Of a DNA stretch of 59,648 nt, positions 2,516-27,883 are shown one piece after another. Origin of the DNA: a virus (Duplodnaviria > Caudoviricetes); IMG/VR virus record IMGVR_UViG_3300037264_000296, positions 1-59,648 of that record, one strand, 5' to 3'. The position numbers and the translations under genes were made by a program. Under the pieces are notes generated by a model. The model was not told where the DNA came from. It made no database searches and saw only the letters and a program-made list of their open reading frames with translations. Numbering within the stretch: position 1 is the stretch's first letter; every line of letters begins with the position of its first letter.

Positions 2516-4629
2516 TGCCTTATTACGAAGATGTATATCCGTTAAGTAAATTAACTGGAATCAACTTATGCAATAATGTAAGAGATCCATGGAAGGATGC
2601 TTTACTTAAAAATACTAATGGCTTTGATGTTACAGAATCATTAATTCATGCAGCTAATACTAGATATGGGTTCAAAGTAGAAAGAACTAAAGAAATTGCT
2701 AAAGCTAAATTATTAGGTGGATTATTTAAATCTTACTATAAATCTACTAATATAAATAAGACTATATTATTAGAAGAATTAGAACAATATACTAGAGCCA
2801 AACAAAGTAATGTTTTAGTGGAATTTGCTACTTTAAAAGATATTGCTCAAGAAAATTACAATAATAATCCAACTACACCTAATGAAATCTTACTAGATGC
2901 TGCTACAGCAAAAGTTAATGCTCAAATAGCATTTATGGCTTTACCTGTAGTTTCAAGAATTACTTCTATACAATTATGTAAACCGTACTCTTCATTTTAT
3001 GTAGCTAGGCATACTTTAAATAAGTATGGTCATGCTGTATTTTATGGTTTTAATAAACCTTATAATGGATTACAGTATTCTTCTCACGCTATTAATGTAG
3101 TAGATTCTACTAAAGTATTAATTTACTATAATACTTTTGAAGAAGAAATCACTATTCCTTCTACAGAAGATTTTCATGTAATTTATGAAGTACAAAATGC
3201 TGTAGGTAACTATGTTCCAGTTTACATTACGTCTGAAGATAGTACTTATTTACAATCATTACTTGGTTTAACTCCTTTAGATATAGAGTTTCATCCTAGT
3301 CAAGGTATTAAACAAAGAGGATTAACTGTAAGAGATTTACCTAATGATCCTGCTAATATTTTAATAGAAGAATTATTAAGAAATTTATATATTAGTGTTT
3401 ATACTTTAACTGATGAGTTTACTAAACATAACTCTAACAATATAAAAGAAATATACTTTACTCAAGGTATTGCTCTAAATACTAAAGAACACGCTTCTAT
3501 TCATTATTTATATGAATTTTTTAAATGGGCAAATTCTTTATCTACAATAACTAAAGAAGTTTTTGATGCGTATAAGAACGATCAAACTAACTCATATTTA
3601 ACTAACCCCTATACTCAATTATTAGAAAATATTATCAGTATAAAGAGTTTTGATTATGAATCACAGATAATATTTAATTTTATTGACTCAGAAACTATTG
3701 ATGGTGTACTAGGTAGGATAGGATTTGCTAAAACTGAAATTATTGAAGGTACTAAAGTAGAAGTTAAGTACAATAATATTAATCAGCAGATTAGTCAGAA
3801 TTTAAATTTAGGTGGATCTCCTGGAAGTAATTCATTTGAATTTGGAGTGCATGGTGATTCTATATATTATGATACTTCTGTGTTAGAGATATTCTTACAA
3901 ACCAGTAAAAAACAATATACTAAGCTATCTATTCATGGTTTAAAACTTAAGAATATACTTAGACCAGGTATTACATTAAGACCTGTTAAAGATCTTATAT
4001 GGGGAATAGACCTTTATAATACTGAAAATATTGATCCAGATGCTGTATATCAAAAACAACAGAATACATGTATAACTGCTTTATTAGATGATTTATCTGG
4101 ATTTATAATTCCTTTATTTGATCATAAAATAAGAACTAATAGTTACTTTTATAATTCAATATATAACATAAGAGTAGTTGAAAGAGTGTATTATGATAGT
4201 CTTAATATTGCTATATTTGCTGAATTTGAGGATAAACAAATAGATCCTTATCTAGTAGAAACACCTGATCCTTGGATAGCTAAAGTAGACAGAGAAGCTA
4301 AATTAAAAGAATATTTATCTTTCTATACTGATTTAGAAACTGATGAATATAAGCAGTTTAAAGATGATATAACAGTGGCTGTTAATGTAGCAGCATACAG
4401 GGTAATACCAAGAAAAAAAAGTGATGGTACTGAACCAGTATTTCTCAAGAATCAAGCTAGAATAAGTAAAGAGATAGTAATGCTTACTCAAGGTAATAAA
4501 TCTAATCTTTATAACGATAGAGATAGTCACACTAATAATGCTCTTACTGGAGTATATAAACCAAAAGTATTTATAGAACCTTTTATTAACATAGGTGATA
4601 AATACAAAAAACCAATGTTTAATAACTAA
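2515..4629 (+). CDS. Structural protein (N4 gp53-like)
   Basis: 704 aa; GIALNTKEHASIHYLYEFF resembles gp53-like proteins; synteny. Confidence 0.55.
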   Translation: MPYYEDVYPLSKLTGINLCNNVRDPWKDALLKNTNGFDVTESLIHAANTRYGFKVERTKEIAKAKLLGGLFKSYYKSTNINKTILLEELEQYTRAKQSNVLVEFATLKDIAQENYNNNPTTPNEILLDAATAKVNAQIAFMALPVVSRITSIQLCKPYSSFYVARHTLNKYGHAVFYGFNKPYNGLQYSSHAINVVDSTKVLIYYNTFEEEITIPSTEDFHVIYEVQNAVGNYVPVYITSEDSTYLQSLLGLTPLDIEFHPSQGIKQRGLTVRDLPNDPANILIEELLRNLYISVYTLTDEFTKHNSNNIKEIYFTQGIALNTKEHASIHYLYEFFKWANSLSTITKEVFDAYKNDQTNSYLTNPYTQLLENIISIKSFDYESQIIFNFIDSETIDGVLGRIGFAKTEIIEGTKVEVKYNNINQQISQNLNLGGSPGSNSFEFGVHGDSIYYDTSVLEIFLQTSKKQYTKLSIHGLKLKNILRPGITLRPVKDLIWGIDLYNTENIDPDAVYQKQQNTCITALLDDLSGFIIPLFDHKIRTNSYFYNSIYNIRVVERVYYDSLNIAIFAEFEDKQIDPYLVETPDPWIAKVDREAKLKEYLSFYTDLETDEYKQFKDDITVAVNVAAYRVIPRKKSDGTEPVFLKNQARISKEIVMLTQGNKSNLYNDRDSHTNNALTGVYKPKVFIEPFINIGDKYKKPMFNN

Positions 4630-6447: not shown

Positions 6448-9400
6448 ATGCCATCTTTACTATCAGATAATCCATTATTATCATTCAATTCATTATTACC
6501 AGATGATGCTTCTAATAAAGCTAATGAACTGTTAGATAAGCTTAACCAAAAGAAAGTAGCTTTAGGTAAGCAATATGTTGACTATGATAATCTTGAAGTA
6601 GTTGATGGTGATACTGTACATAAGAAAGATACAGGTGAACAGTTTAGACTACAGTTTGATAAGTCAGGTTATTCAATAGATCCTTATGAAACTAATCATG
6701 GGGATATATTTACTGCTAAAGAAGATACTCAAAAGAAATTAGCAAGACAAAGACAGTATTTATTAGAACAAACTAATAAAGATAAATGGTTTGATTTTAC
6801 TAAAGCTAACCCAGAAGATATTACTAATGAAATGATCTTTGCTAAAGGGGAAGAAGCTAAACAAAGATTAAATAATGCTCTAAAAGGTAAGAAAGGTATT
6901 GAGTTAAATACTTGGGGTGAAGATATATTTCATAGAGGATTAACTGATATTAGATTAGATGGTTCACAGGATAGTTTATTAAGTGAAATTAATACCCCTG
7001 AATTAAATACAGGATATAACCAGAAATATAACTCAATTCAAAAACTTAAAGATAGTTTAAATAAAAATGCTGTAATGCAAGATGTAGGAGATATAGCTAC
7101 TAACATTGCAAGTAGAACTGTTGGTTTAACTGGTTTACCTGCTGAATTAATTGATATGGGTTCTGGTGCTGTAACAGCTATTGCTAACAAGTTAGGAGCT
7201 GATTTAAATGAACCGTTATCTTATACAAAAGCATTAGCTGATGGGGTAGAGATTCCCTTTACAGATGGATTTAGAGTAGGATTTGATCCTAATAGAGCAG
7301 CTAAAACTATTAAAGAAACACTGCAAAGTAATGAAGCTGTTGCTAATGAAGTTGAATATGCTAAACGTAAAGCTGATGCTATAAGAACTAAAGGGGATGA
7401 ATTATCTTTTGGTGAAGAGTTTGGTTTATCAATGAAGTTTATGGGAGATCATCCTAAGTATGCTATTGATGCTGTTGCTGAAAGTATTCCTGACTTCTTC
7501 TTAATGGGAGCAGCAGCTAAAAGAGTTGCTGGTAAAGTAGCTGAAACAGCTCTTAAAGAAGCTGGTTTAACTATTACTGATGTAGGTGCTAAAGATGTAT
7601 TAGCTACTGCATATAAAGCTAACAAAGGTAGAATATTAGGAGCTAGTGCATTATCAGAAGGTATTATATCTGCTGGTTCAGATTATCAAGGATTAATAGA
7701 TGAAGGTGTTAAATCAACTAAAGCAGCATTACCTTCTATTGCAGCAGGTGCAGCAGTTAGTTTAATTAATCTTGGTTTGGGGCATTCTCCTTTAGGTGAT
7801 GCTATTACTAAGTTTGTAACTAAAGATGCTTCTAATGCAGCTAAAGAAACTCTTAAAGGAGCACTAACTAAAACATTAGTATCTGTTGGAAGTGAGAGTA
7901 TTGAAGAAGGATTACAATCTCCAGCAGAAACTATTCTTACTAACGTAGCTAGAGAGAAAGCTAATTTATTAGAAGGAGCAGGATATTCTGCTGCTGAAGG
8001 TACTGTTTCTGGAGGTATATTAGGTGGAGGAATGACTGCATCACATACTTCATTAGATGCTCTTAAATCATCTTTAAATGCTCGTAGAGAAGCAAAACAA
8101 GAAGAGTTAGCTAAAGCTACAGCTAATCCAATGAAAGATGCTACAGATGCTTTAAATTCATATAACAGTGTAGATACTCCTTCACCTGAAATGAATGATT
8201 CATTAGTTAAAGCAGCTACTGATTTAGGTATTGATATTAAAGATAAACCAATAAATGAAATACATGATGAAGTAACTAAAGCTACTAAATATTCTTCTGT
8301 AGAGGATTATCAAGCTATTAAAGGAATGGATAGTGATACTGATTTAAATGAACATATTACTAAAGTAGTTGGTTCTAAAGTATCAAATGATGTTCAGATA
8401 GATGTATTAGAACAATTACAAAAGAAAGATCCTACAAGTTTTGAAACTCGTAAAGAAGAACTACAACCTAAATTAGATAAATTATATCAACAATCTACTA
8501 CTAAAGATGATCCTAATTTAATTGCAGATAATATTCATACAAGTAAGTTATCTCCATTAGCTACTGCTAGTATTCAAGCAATAGATAAAGAAGCTAATAA
8601 GCTTACATCTAAAGATCCTGAAGTAATATCTAAAATTGAACCAACATTATTATTAGAGCATACTGCTAGGATTGTTAATGAAGCAGGTAAAGTAGATCTA
8701 AAAGACACTACTACTAAAGAAGAATATAGAAATGCTGTAAATGTGTCTTTAAATGGGTATTGGGTTGTTGCTGCTAGTACAGGTAATATAACTGAAGAGA
8801 AAGCTCAAGAACATCTTAATAGAGTTCAACGTACATTAGCTAATTTAGAAAGTCACATAGTAAACAATACTGATATGACTAATAAGGAAGATATTAATTT
8901 ATTAATTAAAAGTAATTATGGTTCAGTAGCTCCTGAAGAATTAACCCCTGAAAATAAGAAATCTGTTCCTACTGAAGATTTAATAAAAGCAAGTAAAGAT
9001 ACCACTGATAAAATTAAAGCTGCTAGAGCTACTACTACATTGAAATTAAGAGGTGTTTATTCGCAATTAGAAGATAAGCTTAAAAAAGTTCCTGGAATAT
9101 TTAATCAAGTAATTAAAGAAGTATTTGAGGGTACTGGTGATAAACCTGCTATTAAAGAACATCAATTACTTATTATGGCAGCAATGGATAGTGATAAACT
9201 AAGCTCTAAAGCTGCTACTAAAACTGCTTTAAATGATTTTGGTAAATGGATTAATTATCATTCTGAGAAACAAATAGAATTAACTAAAGTAAATCAAGCA
9301 ATTATTAAACATGGTGTTGATTCACAGCAAGCTATAGATGCTTTAGTTGATTTAAATACTTGGGCTAAATCTAAAAATGTAGTAGATATTGAAGGTAATG

Positions 9401-12400
9401 CTAGAGAATATAAAATCTCTAAAAAGAATGGTAAATTAAAATTTGGTAATTTAACTGAACAAGTTACTTTAGAAGCTAAAGCTATGCAAATAGCTTTTCA
9501 TGCTTTAAAAGATGAAGCTAGTGCTAAGTTTGGTAAAGAAGATTTACCTGATGCTATGAGTCATTTACTTGATACTGAAGTAGTTACTACTCCTGTAGTA
9601 TCAGAAGAAGATAATTCTACTGTACAAACTGAAGAGGATTTAGCTAATAGATTTAATGAAGAACAACCTTCTAATACTACTGAACCAAGCAACCCAAATA
9701 AAAATAAGGATAAGTTTACCCCAACACACACTTTAACGAACTCCAAAGGTACTAGAACTATTGTTGTACAAGAAATTAAAGATGATTACTTAAATACTGT
9801 ATGGCGTACTGAAGATGGTGGAAACATACATAATATTGAAAATTGGATTGGAGATGGTTGGGTTATTTCAAAAATTAAAACTGAAACTAAATCTAAAGAA
9901 GAGTCTATCTTTTCTAAATTAAAAAAAGAACTTGCTGGTTTAAAAGCATACATTCTTGTAGATATTTTATCTGGATTAAAGACATTCAAAGCTATATATA
10001 GAGGAGAAAGAGTTTCATTACTAGATTTAGAAAATGAAATTTTACGTTTAAGAAAAAAAGCTAATAAAGGGGAATTAACTAAACAAGATTTAATTAATAC
10101 ATACATTTTATGGGTTACAGATACTAGAATACAAATGAGTATATCTGAAGAATCTGTAAAAAATAATCAACAATTATATGTTGATATGCTTGATGAAATA
10201 GTATCTTCATTAAAAGAATCAGATTTTGCATCTGATACTGAAGTAGAAATTATAAATGTACAGGAACAAATTTCAGCAAATGAAAGCTTTGGTAAACAAA
10301 CAAACACTGCTGAAGAAGTAGAATTGTATGTAAAAACAAAAGAAGAATTAAAAAATAAATTAGCTAGTTTAAAAGAAAAACTTACTTTAGAAACATCAAC
10401 AGAAGAAGTAACACCTACTGAAGAAGCTAAACCAGTAGAAGATAATTCTACTGTTACAGAAGAAACTACTCAATCAGAACAAGATACATTACAAGATGAA
10501 TCTGAAATACCTCCTATAACTGATGAAGAATTTCAGTCTATGTATGATTCATATCAAGAAGAAATACAAGATGAAGAGTCTAATGTAGAACCATTAACAG
10601 CGAAGCAACTGCAAAGTATATTTAATAATATCATTGGTTTAATTAAAGCAAATAAAATAGCTACAACTAATCCAATTGAAATGGCTAGTAAGATTCTTAC
10701 ACACTTATTTAAAACAGATTTATCTCTATCAGATGTTAAAGATAAGATGGAGAATTACATTCTTCCAGGTATTAATGACAAAACTATTAAAGATAACACT
10801 AATAAAGATTATTTGTTTGGTTTAGAACTTGGTAGAGAAGAAGCTAATAATAAATTCTTAGAATGGCAAGACAAAAGACTTAATGAATTAGCTAATGCTA
10901 AAACTGATACTCAAGAAGCTAATCCTGATGTTAATCCTGAATTCTTTAAAGAAAAATTAAATAGTAAAGGTGGTAAATTCAGATTATTTTTTACAATAAA
11001 AGGAAGTAAAAAATATATTCCTTTTATAAAAGTAGAATCACCTATTAAAAATGTAACAAATCTTGTGCCATTAGAAACTGTTGTAGATTCTAAAAATAAA
11101 GAATTACCTATTAAATATTATTTATTTAATAAATTTGTCAATACAGCAGGTGTAGGAAGACTTTATTCTAAAGCCCTTGGTTTACTAAAAGATTCTACTA
11201 AAGAAACAGTATTTACTAAGTACCCAGACTTATTTAGAAACTTAGAGAATAATGTTCATATTATTAGTCAACTTAAATCTATTGAAGGTAAAGTTGCTAT
11301 AGATACTATTGCTGAGTTTGTAGAACAATTTCATAATGAATATGTTAAAGCTAATACCAAAATATCAGACACTATTGATAGAAAGAAATTTACTTCTGAA
11401 GTAGGTAAAAAGTTTAGTAAAGATATTCAAGCACAGTTAGCAGTATTTAACAAAGATAATTCAGAAGTAGATTTAAATGTAGAAGCTTTGCTTAAACACT
11501 TTGAAGGTAATTCTGATGTAACAAGATTTATAAATAAATTTGCTAAAGTATTATTGAATGTAGAATCTAATCCTTCATTACTTTTACATAATGATGATGA
11601 AGTAATAGATAGAAATATCACTGCTCAATTAGCATTACATGCTTTAAGTTGGATGATTAATACAGGAACTAAAACTCTCTATACTGAAAGAGAAATGACT
11701 CTTCACATGCTTGGTAAAGAAGAAGCTACTGCTCCAAGTGATGAAGCTATGGCTGCATTATCTACTATGGGATTGGTAAGAGGTTATGTAGCTAATCAAA
11801 TGTCAGGCTCTATTGTTAATTATATGGGTTTTAAACCAAATGATTATATTCCTAAAGAGATGTTTCCTAAGTTTGAAACAGCATTAGGATTAAGTGCTAT
11901 TGATACTTTAGAGAGAATGGGTTATGTAGAATATAAAGGTATTCCACAAGCTTCTATGAATGCATTTATGACTGGAGAAGATACTGTCAGTAGAGGTTAC
12001 ACAAGTGAATCTTCTATATTAAAAGATGCAACTATATTTGTAAGAATTAAATCTGATTTAGCTAAAAACAATGAACCAATATTAGTTAAACATGTAAGAG
12101 AGTTGTTTGATAAAGTTAGACCAGGTAATAAAGAAATACAAGATATATTCAGTATTGAATTAGTTGAAACAGAATATTCTGCTACTCCTTGGGAAAGATC
12201 TAAGTTATTACAGATGCTTGGAGAAAGAAATGGAATACTTACATTTGGTAATTCAAGAACTCAGTATGCTAAAGATGATAGAAAAGCTGCATTGAATGGT
12301 GCTAAGTCAGCATTTGACAATAGAACTGCTGCTAATGATTTAGCTAATAAATTAGGCGATGAGTTTCTTAAAGAGATTAATTTTGAAAAGAAATTAGATG

Positions 12401-15400
12401 CTGAAGATCATATTGGTAATATTGAATCTAATAAAGGATTATTGTCTTCTACAATGTCTATGCTTGATTCTTGGAAAGAATTAAATAGTTTAGGTGCAGT
12501 AGTTTATTTCTATTATAAAAAAATGTATCAAGGCAGATACCAAGGAGTTGGTTCAGGACATCCACAAACTAATAAATTAGTTAGATGGACTAGATCATTA
12601 TGGAAAGGTGAAGTTAAAAAAGATTATTCAGATCCAGTATTTAAACAGTTTATGCAAGCTGTTATAGAAGGATTTAAAAAGAAACCTTCTCAAATGACTG
12701 ATGCTGAAATACAGGATTCTTTTATTGAAATATATGAAAAACATATTCCTGTATTAAATTTAATTAATGAAGATACTCTTACTGAAGAAGAGAAAGATAC
12801 TATTGTACAAGCTATACATGCTGGTGGTGAGAAGTATCATACTATGGCTGTATTAGCTGCATTGTCTGAGTATCATTCAACTATTGGAGATACATTTACA
12901 ACTACACTAATGAGAGAGATTGATGGTATTACTAATGGTCCTCTTATCTCATTAATTATGATGTCTGGAGTAAAACAAACTTTTTTTGAAGGAAAACCTG
13001 TAGCTGTACATATTGAAGAATTACAAGCAGGAGGTGTATCTATTACAGGAGAATCCTACTTAGATTTTGTTAAAAACAACCCTGATACTAATGATATGTA
13101 TAAGATTGTCGCAAGATATATTAATATATATATATCTGAATTAAATGAAACATTACCTTTAATAATTAGAGAAGGTAAAAATAGATTTTTAAAAGATGTG
13201 CGAACTCCGTTACAACAACGTATTGCTATTATGGATGCACATCCTAATAGAATAGAACCTCAAGTATGGTTAAATGCAGTTCATAATCTTGTAGGTATTA
13301 TTGATAGAGGATTTGCTAAGAATCCTACTACAGTATTTATCTTTGGTGGTTCAACTATTAAAATTGCTGCTAATGTAGCAAGTAAAGTATTATTTGATAT
13401 TAATAATAAATTATTAGCAATATCTAAAATAGAAGATGAAGTAACTCAATTAGATGCTGTAAAAGAATTACATGCTAACTTATTTAATAGTATTGGTTTA
13501 CCAATTAATCTATTAACTGAATATACTAAAGCTCCTAATAAGAAAACATTCTTACTAAACTGGCAATTAACTAAACCACAAAAAACTATACTTAGAAATA
13601 GTGTAATAGCTACTTATACTCCTGTAATTGATAATGCAGTTAAAACTGTATTTGCTAGATTATTAGAGAATAGAAAGTTAGTAAACAATGTTTATCAATT
13701 AACTAATAAAATATTCAAACATGAGTTTGAAAGAAAAATAGATGAGTTAGTTAAACAAGGTATTACTATTACTGCGGAAGATATTGATAATATTCTTTTA
13801 GAGTTACAACCTCTAATGCCTGATATTGCTATATTCAATGCTGAAGATATTAAAGAACAGAGACTTCAATTATGGAAACCTGAATCAGCTAAACAAGGTA
13901 AAGCAGATTATAAAGTACAAATAAACAGTCCTAAAGATTCTAAACCAATGACTATGATGGGATTAGATGAACAAGGAAATGTATTTGAGTCTTATATTAT
14001 CAATGAAGGTACTGATAACGAAATAGAAATTCATGTACCTCAATCTGCTTCTGCTTATGCTAAAGATATGATTATTGCTGCTATGAGTGTAAGAGCACCA
14101 ATTACTTCTACACATAATGCTGATAGTCATGTAATACAACAACTACTTAAACTAAACCAACAAGTATTAGGAATACATGATGCTTCTATGATGGGATTAG
14201 ATAGAGTAGAAGAAGTATCAAGAGGAATGAATGAAGCATTGTTTAATTTACTTGCTAACTATAATTACTTTAATGAAGTATATAAGCATTTAGAAAGAGT
14301 CAAATCATATAATAAAAAGAATATTAATTCTTGGTTTAATGGTACGGTAAACAGAGTTAATGCTAAAGCAGAAGGATTACTTAGTGAAGTAAATGAAGAA
14401 GCACGTCCTGTAGATATTACTCGTGAAATAGTAGGTTCTTGGAATACTGTTTGGGTTAGAGATCCAGAGACTAGAAGAAATGTACAACGTATTGCATATA
14501 ATTCATTTGATGAGTTTATTGCTTATTTTAAAGATAAATCTGAAGAGTTATATAAAGAATTACAAGACAATGTAATCACTCCTATTAAACAAGGAGGTTC
14601 ATTTGGTAACTATAGTGGTCAATATCCATTTGTACCTGTATATACTCCTACAGGTAGTACAGAAGAACAAATAGTATCTATTATTGAATCTGGATTAAAT
14701 CAAGGTAATACAAATACTAAACCAGAAATTAAACCAAGTGAAAGTAATGAAATATATTCTCAGTTAGGTAACAAAACTAAATCTACAAATGTAGTTATTA
14801 CATCTTGGAGTAATTTAAAAGGAGTAACTAAAGCTATTACACCTAATGGTGTTGTAGCTACAAGAATATATAATTCTAATGAACATTTTGGTAATCCTTT
14901 TAGTCATGATCCTGCTGGTAAAACACAAGGACTTATTCAAACAGAAACTATACAAGAAGCTGTTGAAAGATATATTGATTGGGTAATTAACTCAAGTGAT
15001 ATTAGAGCTAATTGGATTAGAGCACAGTTGCAATCTGGAGTACTAAAAGGTAAACCAATTCTATATTACAAAGAGTTAGGAGAACCATCTCATGCTACAG
15101 CTTTAGATTATTTAATCAATAAGTATGATTGGGGTAATAAACCAAGTGAAGATACTTCTACTAAAGTAGGATTTACACTTAAAGGTAAGCCAGGAATATA
15201 TGCTAGTTTGCTTAGAAAAGACCAAGGTAAAGCGAATATAGTTAATGCATACATTGGGTATGGTATTAAAGGATCGTCTACTGAAGCTTATTTAAATGAT
15301 GCTCAAGGTAATGTTCCAACTAATGAAAGCATTAATCCAACTAAAGATACTATTGCATTTGTAAGTATTAATGGTAATAAACAATTAACTCCAGAAAATA

Positions 15401-18400
15401 AAACTAAAACATTAGAACAAATTAAAAGAGTTTTAAATGCAGGTGGAGTTATTGTTATGGATAATTCTAGGATTGCTAATAGTATTCATAACAAATCTGG
15501 TGAAGGGGTTATTCAACAAGAGATTCAATCTATTCCTGGAATAGGTATGATGGAAGTAAACGGTAATAATCAATATAAGATGATTAATACTTCTACTCAA
15601 ACCAATGAAGATAATAACTTTGTTTTAACTAAAGATAAAATTCAAAAATTAAAAGATTTTATTAATAAGTATATTAATTCTTCTGATACTTATAAAGTAT
15701 CTGATTTAATAGATAAAGTTAAATTATTAAATCCTGAGTTTAAAGATTTAGATATTTTAAAATATATGTATGGCAGTCTGTTATCTACATATTATTCTGA
15801 TGAGAATCAAAAGAAAGATTTTAATGTTGGAAACAAAACTCCTGATATGTTTTATCAACATAAAAACTATTGGGAGAGTAGAAAGAATTATGGACTTAAA
15901 TTAGTTAAAGATAATCAATCTGGAAAAGCTAAGATTATTTCTATAAACAATAATCCTAATCTTGGTTCACAAGAATCTACTACAACTAATTTATTTCAAA
16001 ACCCATTAGGTAATATTGACTCTACTAATGTGTTAGATACTGCTGAGAGATTAGAGAATTTAGGTAATGTAAGAGATGAAGATACTCATACAACGCATTT
16101 AAAGAGCATTCTAGGAGGCTTTATATCTAAGGTACTACAACCATTGCAGTACTTTGAAATGACTTCACCAGAAGCGAATATAGGCGAATATGATCCATCA
16201 GGTAAAATAGGTTTAAACATATCTAATGCTCCTATAGCTCCTACAGTTAAAGTACCTATGAGTGCATTAACTACATTCGTACATGAGTTAGTTCATGGTG
16301 TTACTGCTAGTGCTTTATTCGATCCTAAGAATAGTATCTTAAGAAGTAGAGTACAAAAGATATTCAATCATATTGAAAGGAATATATCTAATGAAGATAA
16401 AGAAAAGTATTCTCATATCTTTGCTAATAAGAATAAAACACAATTAGCAAATGGTACATTTGTTAATCATGGTTTAGCTGAATTAATAGCATTTGCTGAA
16501 ACTGAACCAATGTTTAGAGAATTACTTAATTCATTACCTAAAATGACTGTAGGTAAGATTACAGAGACTTGGGATGAATCTAAAGAGAAGTTTATAGAAG
16601 CTAATCTATTAGAGATTATATCTAATGTATTTAATAAGATTATGGTTTGGTGGAATGATAAAATTAAAGGTGAACATTCTACGGATGTATTAACTCAGTT
16701 ACATACTTTAACAGTACAGTTATCTACAGCACATCTTAAAGCTAAAAGTACTATTTATGACTTTAAATTACTTTCTGATAAGTCAGATAACTTTGTATTA
16801 AATAAATTACATAGATTATTAGTAGAACCATTACTTAAATTATTAGGTAATAATTACTTTACTTTAAATCCAAATAAGAATGCAGCAGCAATGTCTAACT
16901 CTGCAAGAGACTTACTTAATGCTCCTGGTAGTGCTAAAGCAAAAGTAGATAAGCTATTTGAATTCACAGATATTATGAAGAAGAATTTAAATATATCTGA
17001 AGAGCATTGGCTTACTTATTCATTAAATGAAATTACAGGACAGATAGCTGTAGGTAACTTTACTCAAGCTCTTAATATGACTAAGAAGTTAAGAGATAAA
17101 GTTGTAGCTATTATTCAGAATACAATCTCTTCTAATTTAAGAGCTGGATTTAAAACCAATCTAACTAAACAATTAGATAGAGTTGTTTACAACACTTTAT
17201 TAAAAACAGATTTAAGTTCATTACAAGATTATTATAAAGATGATTTATTAAATATGTTTGATGGTTCTAAACGTAAAGTAGAACAAGAGAAACTTAAGAA
17301 AGAAATTCTTAATAATAAGAATGGTAAATTGTACTTAGGACATACTTACAATACAGCATTCTTTATGGTTCATAACCAAGCTACTAAATCATTCCAGCAT
17401 AGTACATTAATGAATGCTACTCAGATTTATAATATGTATGGTTCAAACTTTAAACCAGTAGGCGATAAAGATAGTACAGTAGAGTTGATAGATAAATTGA
17501 TTGGTTTGTATACTTTAGATCTTGTAAACCAAGAAGAATTAAATACTCTTAAAGATTTGTTTAATACTGATAGTCATGGTTTAAATATGTCTATGGAAGT
17601 TCATAGACAACAGAAAGAACATCACTTAAATGATATTCTTAAAGGTAATAAGAGTTTAGTTGTTAAAGGTTCTACTAAAGAATTAACTAATCCAAATAGA
17701 CAAATTATTATTGCTACTGCTGCTGAAGAAGAGAAACTTAAGTTAAACCATTACACTAAAGGTAATAAGATTGTTTATGAAGGTAAAGAGTTATATGTTT
17801 ATCATTCTAAGTTTAGATTAATGCAACCTTGGGTTCAAGGTATTATCTCATATACTCACATGAATAATATCTTAAGTGATATGAAAGGAGTAATGAAGCA
17901 ATCTGATGGATTAGATCAAATTATTCAAGATGGAAAATTAGATGCTTCAGCTAAGATTAAAACTATGAAAGAGAATGAAGCTAATGCTAATAAAACAGTA
18001 TTTGATACTACTGAAGCTGACTATACTCTTAATCCAGTATTCAATGGTAAAGGATATGTAAGTAAACATTCATTTATGTTAAGTAATCAAGATAAAGAAA
18101 ACTTACTTGATATGAATACTAACTTTACTCATGTATTAGGAGCTATGGTAGCTAATATTACTGATAAACTTAATACACAAAGACTTAATGATGAATCAGC
18201 TAAGATGCTTATTAAGAATAGAATGGATAATCTTGAGACTAAAGGTATTCAATGGATTACTTTAAGTAAAGATGCTAAGACTAAGAATGAAAGAGATATT
18301 TGGAATAAATTAACACCTGAATTTAAGAAAACTATATTAGATTTGTCTGGTTCAAATGAAGTAGTTGTTAATGCTAAGTTATTAAAGATGATATTTGGAC

Positions 18401-19446
18401 AACGTAAGTTATCTTTATCAGATTTCTTTAGACCTGCTGATGAACAAGAGTTAAGTACATTTGTTAAATACTTTGGTTCACAGCTATATCCATATATTAA
18501 GAAAGTTAATTTAGATAGAGGTACTCAAATATGGCAAGAAGGAATTGGTTATCTTAAAGATCAATTGGTTGTTAAATCTGGTACTGTATTAGGTGGTAAT
18601 GAAGTAAGTAATGCATGGATAGCTTACATGGAAGGCATGACACTTATACAGTACTTTAAAGCTAAGATTGAAGCACTTAGATTAGTTATTGGTTATCATA
18701 AATTACAATCTCAAATAAATGATATTGAGTATTTACTTAAATATGATAAAGAAATGAGTTCTACTATGAGAACTAACCTTGAAACCAAGTTAAGTAATAT
18801 TTCTAGTCTAGCTAATAATAGCTTAGTTAAAAAATATGACATTGCTGGTCAAATGAAAACTATTGTTGATGAGATTGGTGAAGATGAGAATTTGTGGAGT
18901 TTTAGAAATGAAGTCTTTGAGAATAGAATTAAATCTGTTACTGATAAACTACCTAAACCAATAAAAACTATTGGTAGAGAAGTATTTATGACACATGATA
19001 CAAAAATGTATCAGTTAATGAGAGACCTAACTCAGATGTCTGATTTAACGTCTAGGATTGCTGTAGGCGAGTTTAAACAGTCACATGGTATGACTGAGAA
19101 GGAAGCATTACAATTGGTTGATGAAGCGTTTATTAACTACGATATACCATCACATCAGAATGTACAATTTGCTGCTGATATGGGATTGTTTATGTTTAAT
19201 AAATTCTTCTTTAGGATTCAGTCAGTAATAGCTAGAGAAGTAGGACAACATCCTGCTAGATTCTTAACATTACTTGGTATGGAACAAGTGTTTGGAGCAC
19301 AAGAAGCAATCCATCATTCTCTTATGACTCCAGATGAGTTAATAGGACATGTTAGTAACCCATTGAAACTTCCTTATGCAATATGGGATTCTAACTTTTA
19401 CAACTGGTTATTTAGTTTTCATGCTCCTGTTTATCAACCTGTGTAG
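6448..19446 (+). CDS. Virion-encapsidated RNA polymerase (N4 gp50-like) with extra domains
   Basis: 4332 aa, no Cys found on reading; motif A REIDGITNG, motif B RGFAKNPTTVFIFG, motif C GIHDA; HELVH motif; C-terminal AFINYD...GLFMFNKFFFRIQ. Confidence 0.95.
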   Translation: MPSLLSDNPLLSFNSLLPDDASNKANELLDKLNQKKVALGKQYVDYDNLEVVDGDTVHKKDTGEQFRLQFDKSGYSIDPYETNHGDIFTAKEDTQKKLARQRQYLLEQTNKDKWFDFTKANPEDITNEMIFAKGEEAKQRLNNALKGKKGIELNTWGEDIFHRGLTDIRLDGSQDSLLSEINTPELNTGYNQKYNSIQKLKDSLNKNAVMQDVGDIATNIASRTVGLTGLPAELIDMGSGAVTAIANKLGADLNEPLSYTKALADGVEIPFTDGFRVGFDPNRAAKTIKETLQSNEAVANEVEYAKRKADAIRTKGDELSFGEEFGLSMKFMGDHPKYAIDAVAESIPDFFLMGAAAKRVAGKVAETALKEAGLTITDVGAKDVLATAYKANKGRILGASALSEGIISAGSDYQGLIDEGVKSTKAALPSIAAGAAVSLINLGLGHSPLGDAITKFVTKDASNAAKETLKGALTKTLVSVGSESIEEGLQSPAETILTNVAREKANLLEGAGYSAAEGTVSGGILGGGMTASHTSLDALKSSLNARREAKQEELAKATANPMKDATDALNSYNSVDTPSPEMNDSLVKAATDLGIDIKDKPINEIHDEVTKATKYSSVEDYQAIKGMDSDTDLNEHITKVVGSKVSNDVQIDVLEQLQKKDPTSFETRKEELQPKLDKLYQQSTTKDDPNLIADNIHTSKLSPLATASIQAIDKEANKLTSKDPEVISKIEPTLLLEHTARIVNEAGKVDLKDTTTKEEYRNAVNVSLNGYWVVAASTGNITEEKAQEHLNRVQRTLANLESHIVNNTDMTNKEDINLLIKSNYGSVAPEELTPENKKSVPTEDLIKASKDTTDKIKAARATTTLKLRGVYSQLEDKLKKVPGIFNQVIKEVFEGTGDKPAIKEHQLLIMAAMDSDKLSSKAATKTALNDFGKWINYHSEKQIELTKVNQAIIKHGVDSQQAIDALVDLNTWAKSKNVVDIEGNAREYKISKKNGKLKFGNLTEQVTLEAKAMQIAFHALKDEASAKFGKEDLPDAMSHLLDTEVVTTPVVSEEDNSTVQTEEDLANRFNEEQPSNTTEPSNPNKNKDKFTPTHTLTNSKGTRTIVVQEIKDDYLNTVWRTEDGGNIHNIENWIGDGWVISKIKTETKSKEESIFSKLKKELAGLKAYILVDILSGLKTFKAIYRGERVSLLDLENEILRLRKKANKGELTKQDLINTYILWVTDTRIQMSISEESVKNNQQLYVDMLDEIVSSLKESDFASDTEVEIINVQEQISANESFGKQTNTAEEVELYVKTKEELKNKLASLKEKLTLETSTEEVTPTEEAKPVEDNSTVTEETTQSEQDTLQDESEIPPITDEEFQSMYDSYQEEIQDEESNVEPLTAKQLQSIFNNIIGLIKANKIATTNPIEMASKILTHLFKTDLSLSDVKDKMENYILPGINDKTIKDNTNKDYLFGLELGREEANNKFLEWQDKRLNELANAKTDTQEANPDVNPEFFKEKLNSKGGKFRLFFTIKGSKKYIPFIKVESPIKNVTNLVPLETVVDSKNKELPIKYYLFNKFVNTAGVGRLYSKALGLLKDSTKETVFTKYPDLFRNLENNVHIISQLKSIEGKVAIDTIAEFVEQFHNEYVKANTKISDTIDRKKFTSEVGKKFSKDIQAQLAVFNKDNSEVDLNVEALLKHFEGNSDVTRFINKFAKVLLNVESNPSLLLHNDDEVIDRNITAQLALHALSWMINTGTKTLYTEREMTLHMLGKEEATAPSDEAMAALSTMGLVRGYVANQMSGSIVNYMGFKPNDYIPKEMFPKFETALGLSAIDTLERMGYVEYKGIPQASMNAFMTGEDTVSRGYTSESSILKDATIFVRIKSDLAKNNEPILVKHVRELFDKVRPGNKEIQDIFSIELVETEYSATPWERSKLLQMLGERNGILTFGNSRTQYAKDDRKAALNGAKSAFDNRTAANDLANKLGDEFLKEINFEKKLDAEDHIGNIESNKGLLSSTMSMLDSWKELNSLGAVVYFYYKKMYQGRYQGVGSGHPQTNKLVRWTRSLWKGEVKKDYSDPVFKQFMQAVIEGFKKKPSQMTDAEIQDSFIEIYEKHIPVLNLINEDTLTEEEKDTIVQAIHAGGEKYHTMAVLAALSEYHSTIGDTFTTTLMREIDGITNGPLISLIMMSGVKQTFFEGKPVAVHIEELQAGGVSITGESYLDFVKNNPDTNDMYKIVARYINIYISELNETLPLIIREGKNRFLKDVRTPLQQRIAIMDAHPNRIEPQVWLNAVHNLVGIIDRGFAKNPTTVFIFGGSTIKIAANVASKVLFDINNKLLAISKIEDEVTQLDAVKELHANLFNSIGLPINLLTEYTKAPNKKTFLLNWQLTKPQKTILRNSVIATYTPVIDNAVKTVFARLLENRKLVNNVYQLTNKIFKHEFERKIDELVKQGITITAEDIDNILLELQPLMPDIAIFNAEDIKEQRLQLWKPESAKQGKADYKVQINSPKDSKPMTMMGLDEQGNVFESYIINEGTDNEIEIHVPQSASAYAKDMIIAAMSVRAPITSTHNADSHVIQQLLKLNQQVLGIHDASMMGLDRVEEVSRGMNEALFNLLANYNYFNEVYKHLERVKSYNKKNINSWFNGTVNRVNAKAEGLLSEVNEEARPVDITREIVGSWNTVWVRDPETRRNVQRIAYNSFDEFIAYFKDKSEELYKELQDNVITPIKQGGSFGNYSGQYPFVPVYTPTGSTEEQIVSIIESGLNQGNTNTKPEIKPSESNEIYSQLGNKTKSTNVVITSWSNLKGVTKAITPNGVVATRIYNSNEHFGNPFSHDPAGKTQGLIQTETIQEAVERYIDWVINSSDIRANWIRAQLQSGVLKGKPILYYKELGEPSHATALDYLINKYDWGNKPSEDTSTKVGFTLKGKPGIYASLLRKDQGKANIVNAYIGYGIKGSSTEAYLNDAQGNVPTNESINPTKDTIAFVSINGNKQLTPENKTKTLEQIKRVLNAGGVIVMDNSRIANSIHNKSGEGVIQQEIQSIPGIGMMEVNGNNQYKMINTSTQTNEDNNFVLTKDKIQKLKDFINKYINSSDTYKVSDLIDKVKLLNPEFKDLDILKYMYGSLLSTYYSDENQKKDFNVGNKTPDMFYQHKNYWESRKNYGLKLVKDNQSGKAKIISINNNPNLGSQESTTTNLFQNPLGNIDSTNVLDTAERLENLGNVRDEDTHTTHLKSILGGFISKVLQPLQYFEMTSPEANIGEYDPSGKIGLNISNAPIAPTVKVPMSALTTFVHELVHGVTASALFDPKNSILRSRVQKIFNHIERNISNEDKEKYSHIFANKNKTQLANGTFVNHGLAELIAFAETEPMFRELLNSLPKMTVGKITETWDESKEKFIEANLLEIISNVFNKIMVWWNDKIKGEHSTDVLTQLHTLTVQLSTAHLKAKSTIYDFKLLSDKSDNFVLNKLHRLLVEPLLKLLGNNYFTLNPNKNAAAMSNSARDLLNAPGSAKAKVDKLFEFTDIMKKNLNISEEHWLTYSLNEITGQIAVGNFTQALNMTKKLRDKVVAIIQNTISSNLRAGFKTNLTKQLDRVVYNTLLKTDLSSLQDYYKDDLLNMFDGSKRKVEQEKLKKEILNNKNGKLYLGHTYNTAFFMVHNQATKSFQHSTLMNATQIYNMYGSNFKPVGDKDSTVELIDKLIGLYTLDLVNQEELNTLKDLFNTDSHGLNMSMEVHRQQKEHHLNDILKGNKSLVVKGSTKELTNPNRQIIIATAAEEEKLKLNHYTKGNKIVYEGKELYVYHSKFRLMQPWVQGIISYTHMNNILSDMKGVMKQSDGLDQIIQDGKLDASAKIKTMKENEANANKTVFDTTEADYTLNPVFNGKGYVSKHSFMLSNQDKENLLDMNTNFTHVLGAMVANITDKLNTQRLNDESAKMLIKNRMDNLETKGIQWITLSKDAKTKNERDIWNKLTPEFKKTILDLSGSNEVVVNAKLLKMIFGQRKLSLSDFFRPADEQELSTFVKYFGSQLYPYIKKVNLDRGTQIWQEGIGYLKDQLVVKSGTVLGGNEVSNAWIAYMEGMTLIQYFKAKIEALRLVIGYHKLQSQINDIEYLLKYDKEMSSTMRTNLETKLSNISSLANNSLVKKYDIAGQMKTIVDEIGEDENLWSFRNEVFENRIKSVTDKLPKPIKTIGREVFMTHDTKMYQLMRDLTQMSDLTSRIAVGEFKQSHGMTEKEALQLVDEAFINYDIPSHQNVQFAADMGLFMFNKFFFRIQSVIAREVGQHPARFLTLLGMEQVFGAQEAIHHSLMTPDELIGHVSNPLKLPYAIWDSNFYNWLFSFHAPVYQPV

Positions 19447-21700: not shown

Positions 21701-22087
21701 TTACTCCTTTATTTCAGTAATTATAATTTCTACTCGTGGGTTAAGTTTATCAACTGCACCAAAACGATTATTTGAACCAATAATAAATTTATAGTTATCA
21801 TCTTTTATAAGACCTAAGTTTTTTAAACAGTCTTGAAAGAACTTTGCATGAATAGAAGTTACATTGTCTAAATCAAACAATACTAATGACTTAGGATATA
21901 CAACATATTCAATAGTAATTCTATCAAACTGAGGTAATAACATTAGTTGGTTTAAAATATCTTTACCATATTGAATCTTGGCATTGTTTAAAGTGAATTT
22001 TTCAGTATTCCGATATAACCCTAAATTCAATGTCCATAGTTTCTTTTTAGTAACAAGTACTCGTAATGGTGAGTTGATAGTGTACAT
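21701..22087 (-). CDS. RusA-like Holliday junction resolvase
   Basis: DLDNVTSIHAKFFQDCL...IKDDN...PRVEI pattern. Confidence 0.75.
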   Translation of the reverse strand: MYTINSPLRVLVTKKKLWTLNLGLYRNTEKFTLNNAKIQYGKDILNQLMLLPQFDRITIEYVVYPKSLVLFDLDNVTSIHAKFFQDCLKNLGLIKDDNYKFIIGSNNRFGAVDKLNPRVEIIITEIKE

Positions 22088-22815
22088 TAGAATGATGATG
22101 CTGATGTTTGTTTAGGAACTCCAGTAGTTACTCCACCAGTTACAGGTTTGAATTTATCAACTAAGATACCTGCTTTCTTTTCAACCCATAAATCTCTAAA
22201 TGTAGCTGGTTTATTAGAAGCTAATTCTTCTGTAGTAAATCCTACTTCATTAAAGATTTTAACATGAACATTTTCTAAACGATCTTCGTTAGTAGGAACA
22301 TAAAGTTTTGTACCATTAGGTTTCAGTTGACCTGAATCAGCAGTTTTATTCACACGTCTTTCTTCAATAGCCATTTGAATCTTAGCACCAATAACATCCA
22401 TAAACATTTCTACATTAATCTTTTCTTGATCTTTGGAGAATTGTTTAATAACTGTTTTGGTTTGAGCAGAGTCTTGCACTTCTACTAATGATTTACCTAC
22501 TGCAAGTTTACAGATAGTATCTAATTGGTCATACCCAATAGTATTTACTCGTTTACCTTTAGTATCACCATAAGTACTGATAGTAGTGTAATCACCTGTT
22601 TTATCCATGAAGTAAATACTTGGACTAAATAATTTTTTATCAGGAGTTTCTAATACTAATTGCATTGAATAACTACCACCAGCATTTTGAACCATGTACA
22701 TTTGTCTAATAGTTAAATCGTATACACCTGTATCAAGTGTAAATTTACCACCGCCTAACACATCTTTTTCTACTACTGCTACTACATCTTTATGTTGTGT
22801 TTGTTGAATCTTCAT
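22087..22815 (-). CDS. Single-stranded DNA-binding protein (N4 gp45-like)
   Basis: EKDVLGGG..LDTGVYDLTI N-terminus, C-terminal F, synteny. Confidence 0.8.
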   Translation of the reverse strand: MKIQQTQHKDVVAVVEKDVLGGGKFTLDTGVYDLTIRQMYMVQNAGGSYSMQLVLETPDKKLFSPSIYFMDKTGDYTTISTYGDTKGKRVNTIGYDQLDTICKLAVGKSLVEVQDSAQTKTVIKQFSKDQEKINVEMFMDVIGAKIQMAIEERRVNKTADSGQLKPNGTKLYVPTNEDRLENVHVKIFNEVGFTTEELASNKPATFRDLWVEKKAGILVDKFKPVTGGVTTGVPKQTSASSF

Positions 22816-22838: not shown

Positions 22839-23561
22839 TTAGTTAAAATATTTATGTAATCTATCAATTACAAGTTGTACATCATTGTTGACATAAATTT
22901 CATTTGTACTCCACATACCTAATGGACTACGAATTCTTTCATTAACAGTATCTTTAGTTAGCTTGGTTTGAAATACATATTTGTAACCAAGTAACTCTTC
23001 TTCTTCAGTGAATGTTAGTAATTCACTTTCATAAGCTCTAAGTTTAGTAATAGGTAATTTCTTAGAAGCGATTACATTACAGAAGAATGCTTCTACACCT
23101 GTATTCATTAATGACCCTTTAACTTTTACAAGTGTTTCATTAATCATTTCAGCTTCATTCATTACATCCATTGTATGAGCCATCATAATAATATTCTTAG
23201 TAGATGCTGCTACAGTATGTTGCATTAATTTCTTAAAGAACTGAGCATAGTCGCCCCAAGCTTTCATACCATTAGAAGCTGTAAGAACATAGTTAGTTTC
23301 ATACTGATCCATCATAAATGTAATAGTATCTATGATAGTAGTATGAATGTCAGGTCTTGATTCAAGTAATTCAATATTAGCAGGAACTACTAATGGATCA
23401 ATTACTGTTACTTCTTTAAACTTACTCTTAAAAGGTAATCGTTTATTACTCTCACAATTTTGATATAACACTCCTTCTGGGTTAGATAAATTTCTAAGAC
23501 TAGAACTTTTACCAGTTGCGCTCTTACCAACTATAAGTACTACATTATTGTTTTCATGCAT
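22839..23561 (-). CDS. Sak4-like AAA ATPase (N4 gp44-like)
   Basis: GKSATGKSSSL, NCES, IIDTITFMMD, ERIRSPLGM. Confidence 0.85.
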   Translation of the reverse strand: MHENNNVVLIVGKSATGKSSSLRNLSNPEGVLYQNCESNKRLPFKSKFKEVTVIDPLVVPANIELLESRPDIHTTIIDTITFMMDQYETNYVLTASNGMKAWGDYAQFFKKLMQHTVAASTKNIIMMAHTMDVMNEAEMINETLVKVKGSLMNTGVEAFFCNVIASKKLPITKLRAYESELLTFTEEEELLGYKYVFQTKLTKDTVNERIRSPLGMWSTNEIYVNNDVQLVIDRLHKYFN

Positions 23562-26911: not shown

Positions 26912-27883
26912 TTATTCTTGAATTAAACCTTTAGATTTAAGGTCTAAGTATTGTTCACAGATTGTACTGCAAGGACAGTAACCACATCTTTTAGCATAGG
27001 CTTTATATTCTACAACTAAACCAACATTACCATCTTTAATAAGTCTCATATTAGCTTCTGATTGTGAAGTAAAGTTCTTTGTACTTCTAGCAGTTTTAGT
27101 AGGATCTTTATAATATTTCCATACTGGATCATCCATCCATAAATCTTCTTTAGTACAGTCAGGTAATTCGCTTTCAGGTCTATCAAGTAACTTATCAATA
27201 GAATTAAGTTTATTAACAATATACTCTTCAATTACTTCTACTGGTTTAAGACTATATTTCTGTTCCATCCATCTTTTTTGAGGATAGTCTCTGTTTTGTC
27301 TAGCTTCTTTCTTACTCCAATCTGTAAATAACCAGAGAATACTAAAATCTTCTTGAGTTACTTTATCTTGGTTTAACCATCTGTAAATACTTGCTTGTAG
27401 AATATCCTTTTCAGCATTAGATTGAAAGATATAAGCATAAGCTTGTCTATTTTTTAAATCATTTAATCTACCATCAATAATGATGTCAAATTTACCTGTA
27501 ACAGTCCAACCTGCTATTTGTTTACTAGCACGTTGCTCTACATATACAGGTATAGTTCCTTCGGGTATATCCCAATGAGGATTGATTCTAATATTGTTTA
27601 TAACATCTTTATGATAACCTAAAGATTCAAATATTTTCTCTGGGTTACTTGTCCAAGCTTGTTCAAGTGCAGTATGAATAGCACTTCCTAAACTACTAGC
27701 AATTCTATCTGAAACATCCTCAATACCTTCACCAGTTAGTCTCTGTAACAAGATAATCTGTTTGGTAGTGTCTAATAAGGATGTTGCTGATATTGTCTTC
27801 TCAGAACGATTGTAATCATAATTACTGTGCAGAAACAATACACACAATGCTAGAGGAATTTGTTCTTTGTTTGTATATTGCAT
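26912..27883 (-). CDS. PD-(D/E)XK nuclease-like protein (N4 gp42-like)
   Basis: ISATSLL, GSAIH, VEQR, GKFDII...DLK, Q.SIYRWL, C-terminal CGYC...C. Confidence 0.85.
   Translation of the reverse strand: MQYTNKEQIPLALCVLFLHSNYDYNRSEKTISATSLLDTTKQIILLQRLTGEGIEDVSDRIASSLGSAIHTALEQAWTSNPEKIFESLGYHKDVINNIRINPHWDIPEGTIPVYVEQRASKQIAGWTVTGKFDIIIDGRLNDLKNRQAYAYIFQSNAEKDILQASIYRWLNQDKVTQEDFSILWLFTDWSKKEARQNRDYPQKRWMEQKYSLKPVEVIEEYIVNKLNSIDKLLDRPESELPDCTKEDLWMDDPVWKYYKDPTKTARSTKNFTSQSEANMRLIKDGNVGLVVEYKAYAKRCGYCPCSTICEQYLDLKSKGLIQE

Follow-up and report, generated by a model that had tools for sequence, protein, structure and literature searches.

In this study, we analysed a stretch of DNA of 59,648 nucleotides (nt; hereafter, the window), which is the complete and linear IMG/VR record IMGVR_UViG_3300037264_000296 of a virus of the Caudoviricetes (59.6 kb, 29% G+C, estimated to be 80% complete). 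Its virion RNA polymerase (vRNAP) gene, a single open reading frame (ORF) at positions 6448..19446 of the plus strand, encodes a giant protein of 4332 amino acids (aa), labelled P0001 (or P1). We found that discrete modules occupy two sites of this protein, one before and one after the polymerase core, and that copies or parts of a short DNA element of about 25 nt lie at five of the six module junctions. These are genuine, exchangeable modules; they vary between close relatives and are common to unrelated giant virion proteins. As words, the repeats that border them are unremarkable, but their placement is not random. The best explanation of these data, to which we give a probability of roughly 55%, is that modules are exchanged through short homology at the element.

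Variable modules on both sides of the polymerase core

The closest relative of P0001 is P0002, a protein of 4499 aa. In a global alignment the two proteins share a backbone of 77–90% identity, in which two cassettes are replaced; megablast of public phage genomes returned no close relative, and a scan of IMG/VR with the whole of P0001 returned no relative. At site A, upstream of the core, the homology between P0001 and P0002 stops at LLDTEVVT (aa 1047) and restarts at TQSEQDTLQDESE (about aa 1338–1340). P0001 carries here the cassette M1 (9589..10461, plus strand; aa 1048–1338), in place of which P0002 has an unlike cassette of about 550 aa. Site B (aa 2761–3170) is located between the core (approximately 11347..14709, plus strand; aa 1634–2754, as delimited by tblastn, the alignment with phage N4 and the 86–90% identity to P0002 up to aa 2760) and the C-terminal domain bearing an HExxH motif. 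There, the homology stops at NTNTKPE (E2760) and restarts at LGSQEST/TTT (about aa 3172). The residues between comprise, on the plus strand, the modules M2 (14743..15135; aa 2766–2896), M3 (15163..15586; about aa 2906–3046) and M4 (15616..15951; about aa 3057–3168), and P0002 carries in the same place a small domain, M2', and an ART-PolyVal domain (32 bits against a cut-off of 31.2). The preliminary description of this window had proposed that three repeat-bounded segments are in-frame modules on either side of the core, and had taken colinear segments in relatives as a sign to the contrary. The breaks in homology with P0002 and the recurrence of M2 and M3 elsewhere bear the proposal out: the segments are real discrete modules flanking the core, and the closest relative lacks them and holds other modules at both of the same sites. 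As to the claim that they explain much of the excess length over the N4 vRNAP, the segments account for 558 of the 832 aa by which P0001 exceeds N4 gp50, and about 700 aa are reached when M4 and the whole cassettes are included.

Another variable patch lies at 10879–11175 (aa 1478–1576), with 99 aa in P0001 against 49 aa in P0002, and contigs from two environmental sequencing runs (X2 and X3) jump from 10884 to 11177 at this patch. Other diverged patches between the two proteins are located at aa 209–533, 820–1047, 1635–1694, 2183–2248 and 3479–3504.

M2 is a widely shared domain. Segments 52–66% identical to it were found in 17 of 19 other giant proteins, at host positions from residue 966 to residue 4700, and a third search matched it in 60 of 60 shorter proteins, giving more than 75 other proteins altogether. 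The borders of the full-length matches fall at aa 2764–2769 and 2891–2902, and about a dozen of the matches cover M2 in part. Homologues of M3, taken here as about aa 2899–3041, are present in P0003 (50% identity), where the module is sited before the polymerase core, in P0006 (42%) and in P0018 (34%), where it precedes the M2 copy, that is, in reversed order. M1 had a single match among 1.84 billion representatives, the 3875-aa protein P0089, and M4 had no homologue outside P0001 in protein searches. A scan of the window detected no stand-alone or orphan copies of M1–M4 or of the P0002 modules elsewhere in it. The proteins that share M2 or M3 with P0001 carry ART-PolyVal, NADAR, LPD3, MuF_C, AlkB-like, SLOG, UDG, PIF1-type helicase and zeta-like kinase domains, and the partner domains of M2 are the repertoire of polyvalent proteins.

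Some features of these partner proteins were noted in passing. P0089 has 16 stretches resembling M1 residues 138–199, which thus form a repeated helical unit. In P0006, P0036, P0052, P0057, P0058 and P0060, which carry an AAA_33 / zeta-toxin-like kinase, M2 looks nested in the kinase domain, because its flanks read KDKEIY...M2...VVFDTTNLTKDKR. Five M2-bearing proteins (P0004, P0029, P0031, P0034 and P0035) end in CK (...FECK, ...FKCK, ...RFCK), and this terminal dipeptide may be a C-terminal signal.

A shared element at the module junctions

Six junctions were defined by homology alone, without the use of repeats. The three perfect direct repeats from which the modules had initially been drawn were all recovered at the places reported, within the one ORF and each at an in-frame distance: the 18-mer AGAAGATAATTCTACTGT at 9606 and 10437 (831 nt apart), the 13-mer TAAACCAAGTGAA at 14730 and 15138 (408 nt) and the 11-mer ATACTTCTACT at 15152 and 15587 (435 nt). 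All three pairs lie 0–7 residues from the homology-defined borders. The copies of the 18-mer (EDNSTV, aa 1054–59 and 1331–36) are just within both edges of the cassette at site A; the first 13-mer comes directly after the last shared backbone residue, E2760, and the second (NKPSE) lies between M2 and M3; and the 11-mers are at the M2/M3 and M3/M4 borders. Alignment of these sequences indicated that the repeat pairs, real as they are, do not represent separate microhomologies but parts of one family of junction linkers. The element common to the family, T AAA CCA RGT GAA GAT AMT TCT ACT (GT), encodes KP-x-E-D-N/T-S-T.

Full copies, all positions being on the plus strand, are found at A-right (10428..10454; KPVEDNSTV), which holds the 18-mer and has 0 mismatches to the 24-nt pattern, and at B2 (15138..15162; KPSEDTST), which includes the second 13-mer together with the first 11-mer; these two are identical at 20 of 24 nt, over a distance of 4.7 kb. 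A-left (9598..9623; SEEDNSTV) also holds the 18-mer and is partial, with 3 mismatches to the pattern, and B1 (14730..14742; (I)KPSE), the first 13-mer, is the 5' half. B3 (15587..15615; NTST-QTNEDN) is rearranged, the second 11-mer being followed by the 5' part of the element with a 1-nt deletion and in another frame. B4 (15961..15981; LGSQEST), where the homology to the P0002 backbone restarts, is not of the element family. When as many as 3 mismatches are allowed, the 24-nt pattern is found three times in the whole 59.6 kb of the window, where 0.02 occurrences would be expected, and exact copies of the element halves occur solely at junctions. P0001 contains the peptide ED[NT][SN] at four places, all of them 3–7 aa away from a junction; P0002 contains it at one place, between M2' and ART.

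One possible explanation for these repeats is chance, that is, ordinary short in-frame matches of an AT-rich, codon-biased and low-complexity gene, selected by eye, which come close to the borders because linkers are alike in composition. Judged as words, the repeats would allow this. The ORF contains 227 maximal exact direct pairs of at least 11 nt, of which 198 are in frame, so that an in-frame distance is uninformative. Codon shuffling gave 144 ± 13 such pairs, and 16 ± 4 pairs of at least 13 nt against the 32 observed. Shuffled genes routinely reached 13 nt, and, with 300 shuffles of each type, a longest repeat of at least 18 nt arose in 4.7% of cases when codons were permuted and in 24% when synonymous codons were redrawn and the protein was kept. 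The preliminary description had taken an expectation by chance in this AT-rich gene as a sign against its proposal; when taken alone, the 11-mer and the 13-mer are indeed expected, and the 18-mer is borderline. A third copy of the 13-mer is located at an unrelated place (45000). A tandem-repeat finder and a generic repeat finder detected no domain-scale duplication. In IMG/VR and the JGI metagenomes, the 24-nt element was found at seven loci, six of them in one unrelated protein family, one in a short frame and none in a vRNAP. The family (L002–L007) consists of proteins of about 700 aa on AT-rich contigs, in which KPSEDNST is encoded by the identical 24 nt in an acidic linker, as might also be expected of chance.

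The placement of the repeats is nevertheless non-random. Between junction windows (±10 to 13 aa), we found 2–3 exact matches of at least 11 nt, as compared with 0.07 for random in-frame windows (P = 0.0014) and with 0.14–0.27 when the codons of the junction windows were pooled and re-dealt (P ≤ 0.003). Gapped local scores of at least 11 were obtained for 6 of the 15 junction pairs against 0.4–0.5 expected, a result reached in 0 of 1000 replicates of either null. These position-conditioned tests, which rest on junctions defined by homology, reject chance and confirm that the repeats coincide with module borders, and a test of 41 loci with controls from the same genes, described below, rejects chance as well. 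We therefore regard the chance explanation as largely refuted and very improbable.

The similarity among the copies seems to reside in the DNA. At the residues shared by repeat copies, the codons are all identical, for which codon usage gives a probability of 0.04–0.10 per pair; among all repeated tetrapeptides of P0001, only 17% have identical codons. B3 (AAACCAA-TGAAGATA) shows a one-base difference from B2 (AAACCAAGTGAAGATA), with its first half read as QTNED instead of KPSED. Since the codons are identical and B3 keeps the DNA and not the peptide, these data point to likeness at the DNA level rather than at the peptide level.

The same observations bear on a further possibility, in which KPxED(N/T)ST is a processing site where the downstream HExxH domain cuts the protein into free modules, the repeats being held under selection on the peptide. 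In accordance with this, the HExxH motif, HELVH (16282..16296, plus strand; aa 3279), which belongs to a metallopeptidase-like C1 domain, lies about 100 aa past site B and is conserved, being kept in P0002, P0003 and P0027, with a colinear counterpart at aa 2228 of N4 gp50. The peptide motif was found solely at junctions, and KPS flanks of M2 are kept in L030, a protein of the same polymerase family (see below). In its available text, the study of Iyer et al. (2017; PMC5512222) proposes that domains of polyvalent proteins are released by the MPTase, as the HExxH domain is called there; the same domain is named CTD-C1 in the N4 structure paper (PMC13434306). Selection on a peptide does not, however, account for the identical codons or for B3. 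Moreover, only one of the five junctions of P0002 bears the motif, although its HExxH domain is 88% identical, and other hosts of M2 carry unrelated repeat words. According to Iyer et al. (2017; PMC5512222), the N4 vRNAP enters the virion without being processed, and the available text of the N4 structure paper reports no proteolysis (PMC13434306). Taken together, we consider processing to be an improbable reason for the repeats.

Filled and empty sites

The alignment of P0001 with P0002 provides examples of the same linker in a filled and an empty state. The sequence KPSEDNNLGSQEST is unbroken in P0002, where P0001 has KPSED-M3-NEDNN-M4-LGSQEST. Conversely, LGSQESTTTNLF is unbroken in P0001, where P0002 has LGSQEST-ART-SSESTTTKLF (flanks SQEST and SSEST); the ART cassette of P0002 is placed inside the linker that corresponds to B4. 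Similarly, TKPEIKPSE is unbroken in P0001, where P0002 has TKPE-M2'-IKPEVKPSE (flanks KPE and KPE). A short duplication of linker residues thus appears to bound each insert, some of these duplications being of 2–3 aa and lying in low-complexity sequence of ambiguous alignment.

Part of the stretch is present in 13 environmental runs, and contigs from four of these were compared with it at 80% likeness. A contig of 615 nt from run X2 matched the window solely at 15138–15614 (96%; 18 differences), and its two ends, 90 and 48 nt long, are unlike; the matching part starts with the first base of B2 and stops within B3. Because the contig ends do not fit, M3 and both linker copies would here stand together in other surroundings; as one contig of low depth, this is a hint and not proof. 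The contigs of run X1 break at 15133 and 15616, and an X2 contig ends at 14739, which gives weak hints of branches in the assembly graph. The contig cover of run X1 has holes over M2.

Direct repeats around M2 in other proteins

To compare M2 among its hosts, a hidden Markov model of the module was built and the flanks of the copies were inspected for shared words. The protein set, which was not de-replicated, comprised 56 full-length copies of M2, 54 of them with both flanks. In 7 of the 54, an identical peptide of at least 4 aa was found within 25 aa on both sides, and the seven words (EIKSS, NTVEQ, KPSE, EIKP, PPPPS, QPSTQ and VQEQ) differ. Flanks paired across proteins gave 1.75% (n = 2862), shuffling gave an expectation of 1.1, and none of 200 shuffles reached 7. 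At the DNA level, 54 IMG/VR loci provided 48 full copies of M2 with 75-nt flanks, or 41 after near-duplicates had been removed, and 8 of the 41 showed an exact direct repeat of 11–27 nt across M2. The corresponding rate was 1.9% for flanks paired across loci (n = 1640) and 1.5% for non-adjacent in-frame windows of the same genes (n = 3810; binomial P = 1e-7); codon shuffling gave an expectation of 0.75, and none of 300 shuffles reached 8. Direct repeats are thus enriched around M2 across independent loci, in the 54 proteins as well as in the 41 loci.

In L037, L039 and L040 (M2 at about 3010–3405), the unit Q(S/P)STSV-NSND-M2-NTQ(S/P)STSV is found in three differing surroundings, and therefore module and repeats travel or persist together. 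L030 (1–5189) encodes a distant vRNAP with a core 23–25% identical to that of P0001 and with M2 at the same place after the core; KPSES and KPSKS stand on the two sides of its M2, each encoded by TAAACCAAGT as in the window, which points to long-term conservation. A stretch HSGGAKGAD, SLOG-like by eye, follows M2 in L030.

These findings raise the alternative that the linkers are passive. A module might bring its own linker, such as an N-terminal KPSE..., or all of the linkers might descend from one duplicated ancestor, with the repeats as by-products. Exchange would then proceed either through illegitimate events or through conventional homologous recombination along the extended conserved stretches of the backbone. 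Such a view is consistent with the constancy of the repeat-M2-repeat unit in L037, L039 and L040, with the X2 contig, in which M3 is accompanied by both linker copies, and with the KPS flanks in L030. In addition, long-homology exchange is plainly at work, because the backbones of P0001 and P0002 form a mosaic of stretches of 85–90% and of 25–40% identity. Three observations speak against passive linkers. Firstly, the element is also present at site A, 4.7 kb away and beside an unrelated module. Secondly, the repeat words of M2 differ by host (EIKSS, NTVEQ, QPTVDIVEE, PVST and others), and this variation fits recipient sequences and not a linker borne by the module. Thirdly, the empty state holds a single copy of the linker wherever filled and empty sites were compared. 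On balance, we think it unlikely that passive linkers are the explanation, and we prefer exchange at the element.

The virion RNA polymerase and its gene neighbourhood

Judged from its sequence, P0001 belongs to the N4-like virion RNA polymerases and is built as a polyvalent protein. A search of PHROGs matched it to phrog_2206, "virion RNA polymerase" (E = 5.3e-249), and in 156 phage records tblastn detected proteins annotated as vRNAPs, with an identity of about 20–25% and solely over aa 1634–2465 (aa 735–1566 of the query). The protein is colinear with N4 gp50, at an identity of only about 21%: P1 aa 2019–2460 align with gp50 1410–1870 in the core (E = 2.5e-14), and P1 3271–4283 with gp50 2448–3458 at the C-terminus (E = 1.4e-21). 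A Pfam scan of P0001 gave no model above its cut-off, including none of the polyvalent-domain models; N4_RNAP_helical was matched at aa 2285–2342 with 18.5 bits, under the cut-off of 27. By analogy with N4, as described in the available texts (PMC13434306, PMC5512222), P0001 would be carried inside the capsid and would enter the host by ejection.

As compared with the gene map of N4, the neighbourhood of the gene is N4-like. The major head protein and virion proteins are encoded upstream of the vRNAP, and further neighbours are a primase (phrog_2135), an exonuclease (phrog_2139), a Sak4-like protein, SSB, DNA polymerase and small N4-type RNA polymerase subunits. The Sak4-like single-strand annealing protein is encoded on the minus strand at 22839..23561 (phrog_124, E = 3.5e-35), and the genes for SSB (22087–22815) and for an exonuclease (26912–27883) are nearby. 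The Sak4-like protein would be a candidate enzyme for short-homology exchange. The DNA polymerase occupies two ORFs on the minus strand (34417–36027 and 31258–32382; both phrog_17), between which lies an ORF of unknown function at 32767–33786 (phrog_2475). An ORF for a GIY-YIG homing endonuclease (41042–41593, minus strand) adjoins the ribonucleotide reductase gene (41890–43260).

Predicted functions of the modules

In a structure model of aa 2755–3181, M2 was predicted with a predicted local distance difference test (pLDDT) score above 90 over model residues 11–140, and the rest of the model was of low confidence. M2 had no match in the PDB, as Foldseek returned none at E ≤ 0.001 and a profile search of PDB sequences gave nothing meaningful. 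Against BFVD, Foldseek matched M2 to K4RI33, a DUF4326 phage protein (probability 1.00; template modelling (TM) score by target 0.48), to A0A075DXT3 (probability 1.00; TM 0.63) and to A0A8S5M3Y5, another DUF4326 protein (probability 0.95), with E values of only about 0.01–0.05. Over the BFVD matches as a whole, the TM scores by target ranged from 0.33 to 0.48 for DUF4326 proteins and from 0.63 to 0.65 for two unnamed entries, with E values of about 0.01–0.25. The only Pfam match of M2 was likewise DUF4326, at 15.6 bits and under the cut-off of 25 (E = 0.026), and 8 of 48 aligned DUF4326 members matched M2 at E ≤ 1, the best at 0.011. These sequence and model comparisons suggest that M2 may be a distant DUF4326-like domain, a lead that falls short of established membership. 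The DUF4326 pattern has cysteines where M2 has tyrosine and lysine. The family is placed in a rhodanese-phosphatase clade in the available text of PMC9503650, where phosphate processing on the ribose of ADP-ribose derivatives is proposed for it.

For M3, no reliable family was found, the best ESM Atlas score (0.83) being below the useful range and the confidence of the fold low. Its assignment as a methyltransferase was rejected, since the matches (E = 0.03–0.09) were below the cut-off. M4 gave a helical model of low confidence, and the single-sequence fold of M1, with a pLDDT of 46, was unusable. The best hit of a VIA-wide structure search had a Z score of 4.9, solely on low-confidence parts, and the HExxH region had no match among PDB sequences. 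Whatever their activities, the modules would travel into the cell with the polymerase and presumably act as early effectors; that they counter host defences, as the preliminary description proposed, is a hypothesis.

Discussion

From the placement of the element, we infer that recombination occurs at it. In this view, P0001 possesses two slots for cargo, slot A before the core, filled with M1, and slot B between the core and the HExxH domain, filled with M2, M3 and M4. The most likely role of the element would be that of a short-homology adapter. Annealing-type recombination between its copies, either within the gene or between co-infecting relatives, could insert, delete or exchange modules with the reading frame kept, and a direct repeat would be left on either side of the module as the outcome. 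An extension of this proposal, which we put forward tentatively as possible rather than probable, is that M2 is an in-frame mobile domain cassette, as further small domains probably are too, and that such cassettes pass among giant injected phage proteins by means of very short linker words, each gene building its own "house adapter" that multiplies with every insertion.

Several of our results weigh against exchange at the element. In-frame repeats are common in this gene, as the counts given above indicate, and an exact in-frame repeat of 17 nt (13952–13968 and 14186–14202, encoding MMGLD twice) lies within the polymerase core and at no border; both of its copies are also present in P0002. 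The element is missing at B4 and at four of the five junctions of P0002. The junctions had already been seen when the element and the motif of the peptide were defined, and the P values for ED[NT][SN] are for that reason optimistic. The comparison of filled and empty sites depends on one relative, P0002 being the sole close relative from two large protein-collection searches, and gives the breakpoints at the level of residues only. The reads with precise deletions that had been suggested as a check did not appear: among the 13 joints listed, none corresponds to a deletion from repeat to repeat (9606 to 10437, 14730 to 15138 or 15152 to 15587), a result that says little as it comes from contigs of four runs, which drop rare variants. 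Around M2, three of the eight positive loci (L037, L039 and L040) share one word, Q(S/P)STSV, and may be a single event, which leaves about six independent cases, and the KPS flanks of L030 would also fit a peptide function.

Polyvalent virion proteins are thought to deliver the first counter-measures of a phage before gene expression, and no explanation for the free reshuffling of their domains was found in the literature covered here. The junction element and the flanking-repeat signature provide a concrete and testable mechanism for it, as well as a practical rule for locating module borders in giant phage proteins. They also mark two permissive insertion sites in N4-like polymerases, which could serve in laboratory phage work for the delivery of chosen proteins into bacteria. 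If the extension to mobile domain cassettes is true, it would amount to a domain-level cassette system for virion-delivered effectors, with the logic of integrons or polymorphic toxins within a single reading frame.

Polyvalent proteins were defined by Iyer, Burroughs, Anand, de Souza and Aravind (2017; PMC5512222), who, in the available text, describe a zincin-like MPTase as the fusion partner of nearly all N4-like virion RNA polymerases, with ART, lysozyme or PBECR domains as additional partners in some of them, and who propose delivery at invasion and possible autoprocessing. The idea put forward in the preliminary description, that the vRNAP is a scaffold for the delivery of cargo, is not new, since such effector fusions are already in print as the polyvalent-protein concept (PMC5512222). 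P0001 resembles polyvalent proteins in joining a virion RNA polymerase, an HExxH domain and unrelated small domains, that is, the core and four modules, in one giant chain that would be delivered along with the DNA, and the polyvalent repertoire is seen in its sister P0002 (ART-PolyVal) and in the partners of M2 (NADAR, AlkB-like, SLOG and zeta-like kinase). In contrast to what we describe for P0001, the available text of that study contains neither the words "linker" and "shuffling" nor a junction element or flanking-repeat signature, and it refers to recombinational variability only for neighbouring cassette ORFs of another system (PMC5512222). Outside subscription journals and supplements, we found no literature on a junction element or on microhomology in polyvalent proteins or Schitoviridae. 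What is new here is that the junctions share an element and that flanking repeats form a general signature around a widespread module.

The N4 gp50 protein is described as beads on a string, with extended linkers at 907–1007 and 2102–2123 and with sub-domains of about 250–300 aa, sized for the tail channel, in the available text of the 2026 structure paper (PMC13434306). P0001 is like N4 gp50 (3500 aa) in its gene neighbourhood and in the order of its parts, namely the N-terminal domain, RNA polymerase core, HExxH C1 and C2, and differs in being longer by 832 aa, about 700 aa of which lie in the two cassettes. By their order along the protein, sites A and B may correspond to the two linkers of N4, which themselves do not align, and the modules of the window (about 110–290 aa) would fit the size of the N4 sub-domains.

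Polymorphic toxin loci, such as those of Rhs and CdiA, have a conserved pre-toxin motif followed by exchangeable C-terminal cassettes, and the motif can serve as homology for the exchange. A parallel between polyvalent proteins and polymorphic toxins was drawn by Iyer et al. (2017; PMC5512222). P0001 shares with these toxins a short conserved sequence at the border of a variable module. Unlike them, it has modules that are internal, several in number, bounded on both sides and part of a virion enzyme, and there are no orphan cassettes in the window. In the tail-fibre adhesin genes of T-even phages, short conserved motifs flank variable segments and mediate their swapping. The adhesins are of another protein class and function, and host range is not at stake in P0001; the likeness consists in short in-frame words standing between variable segments.

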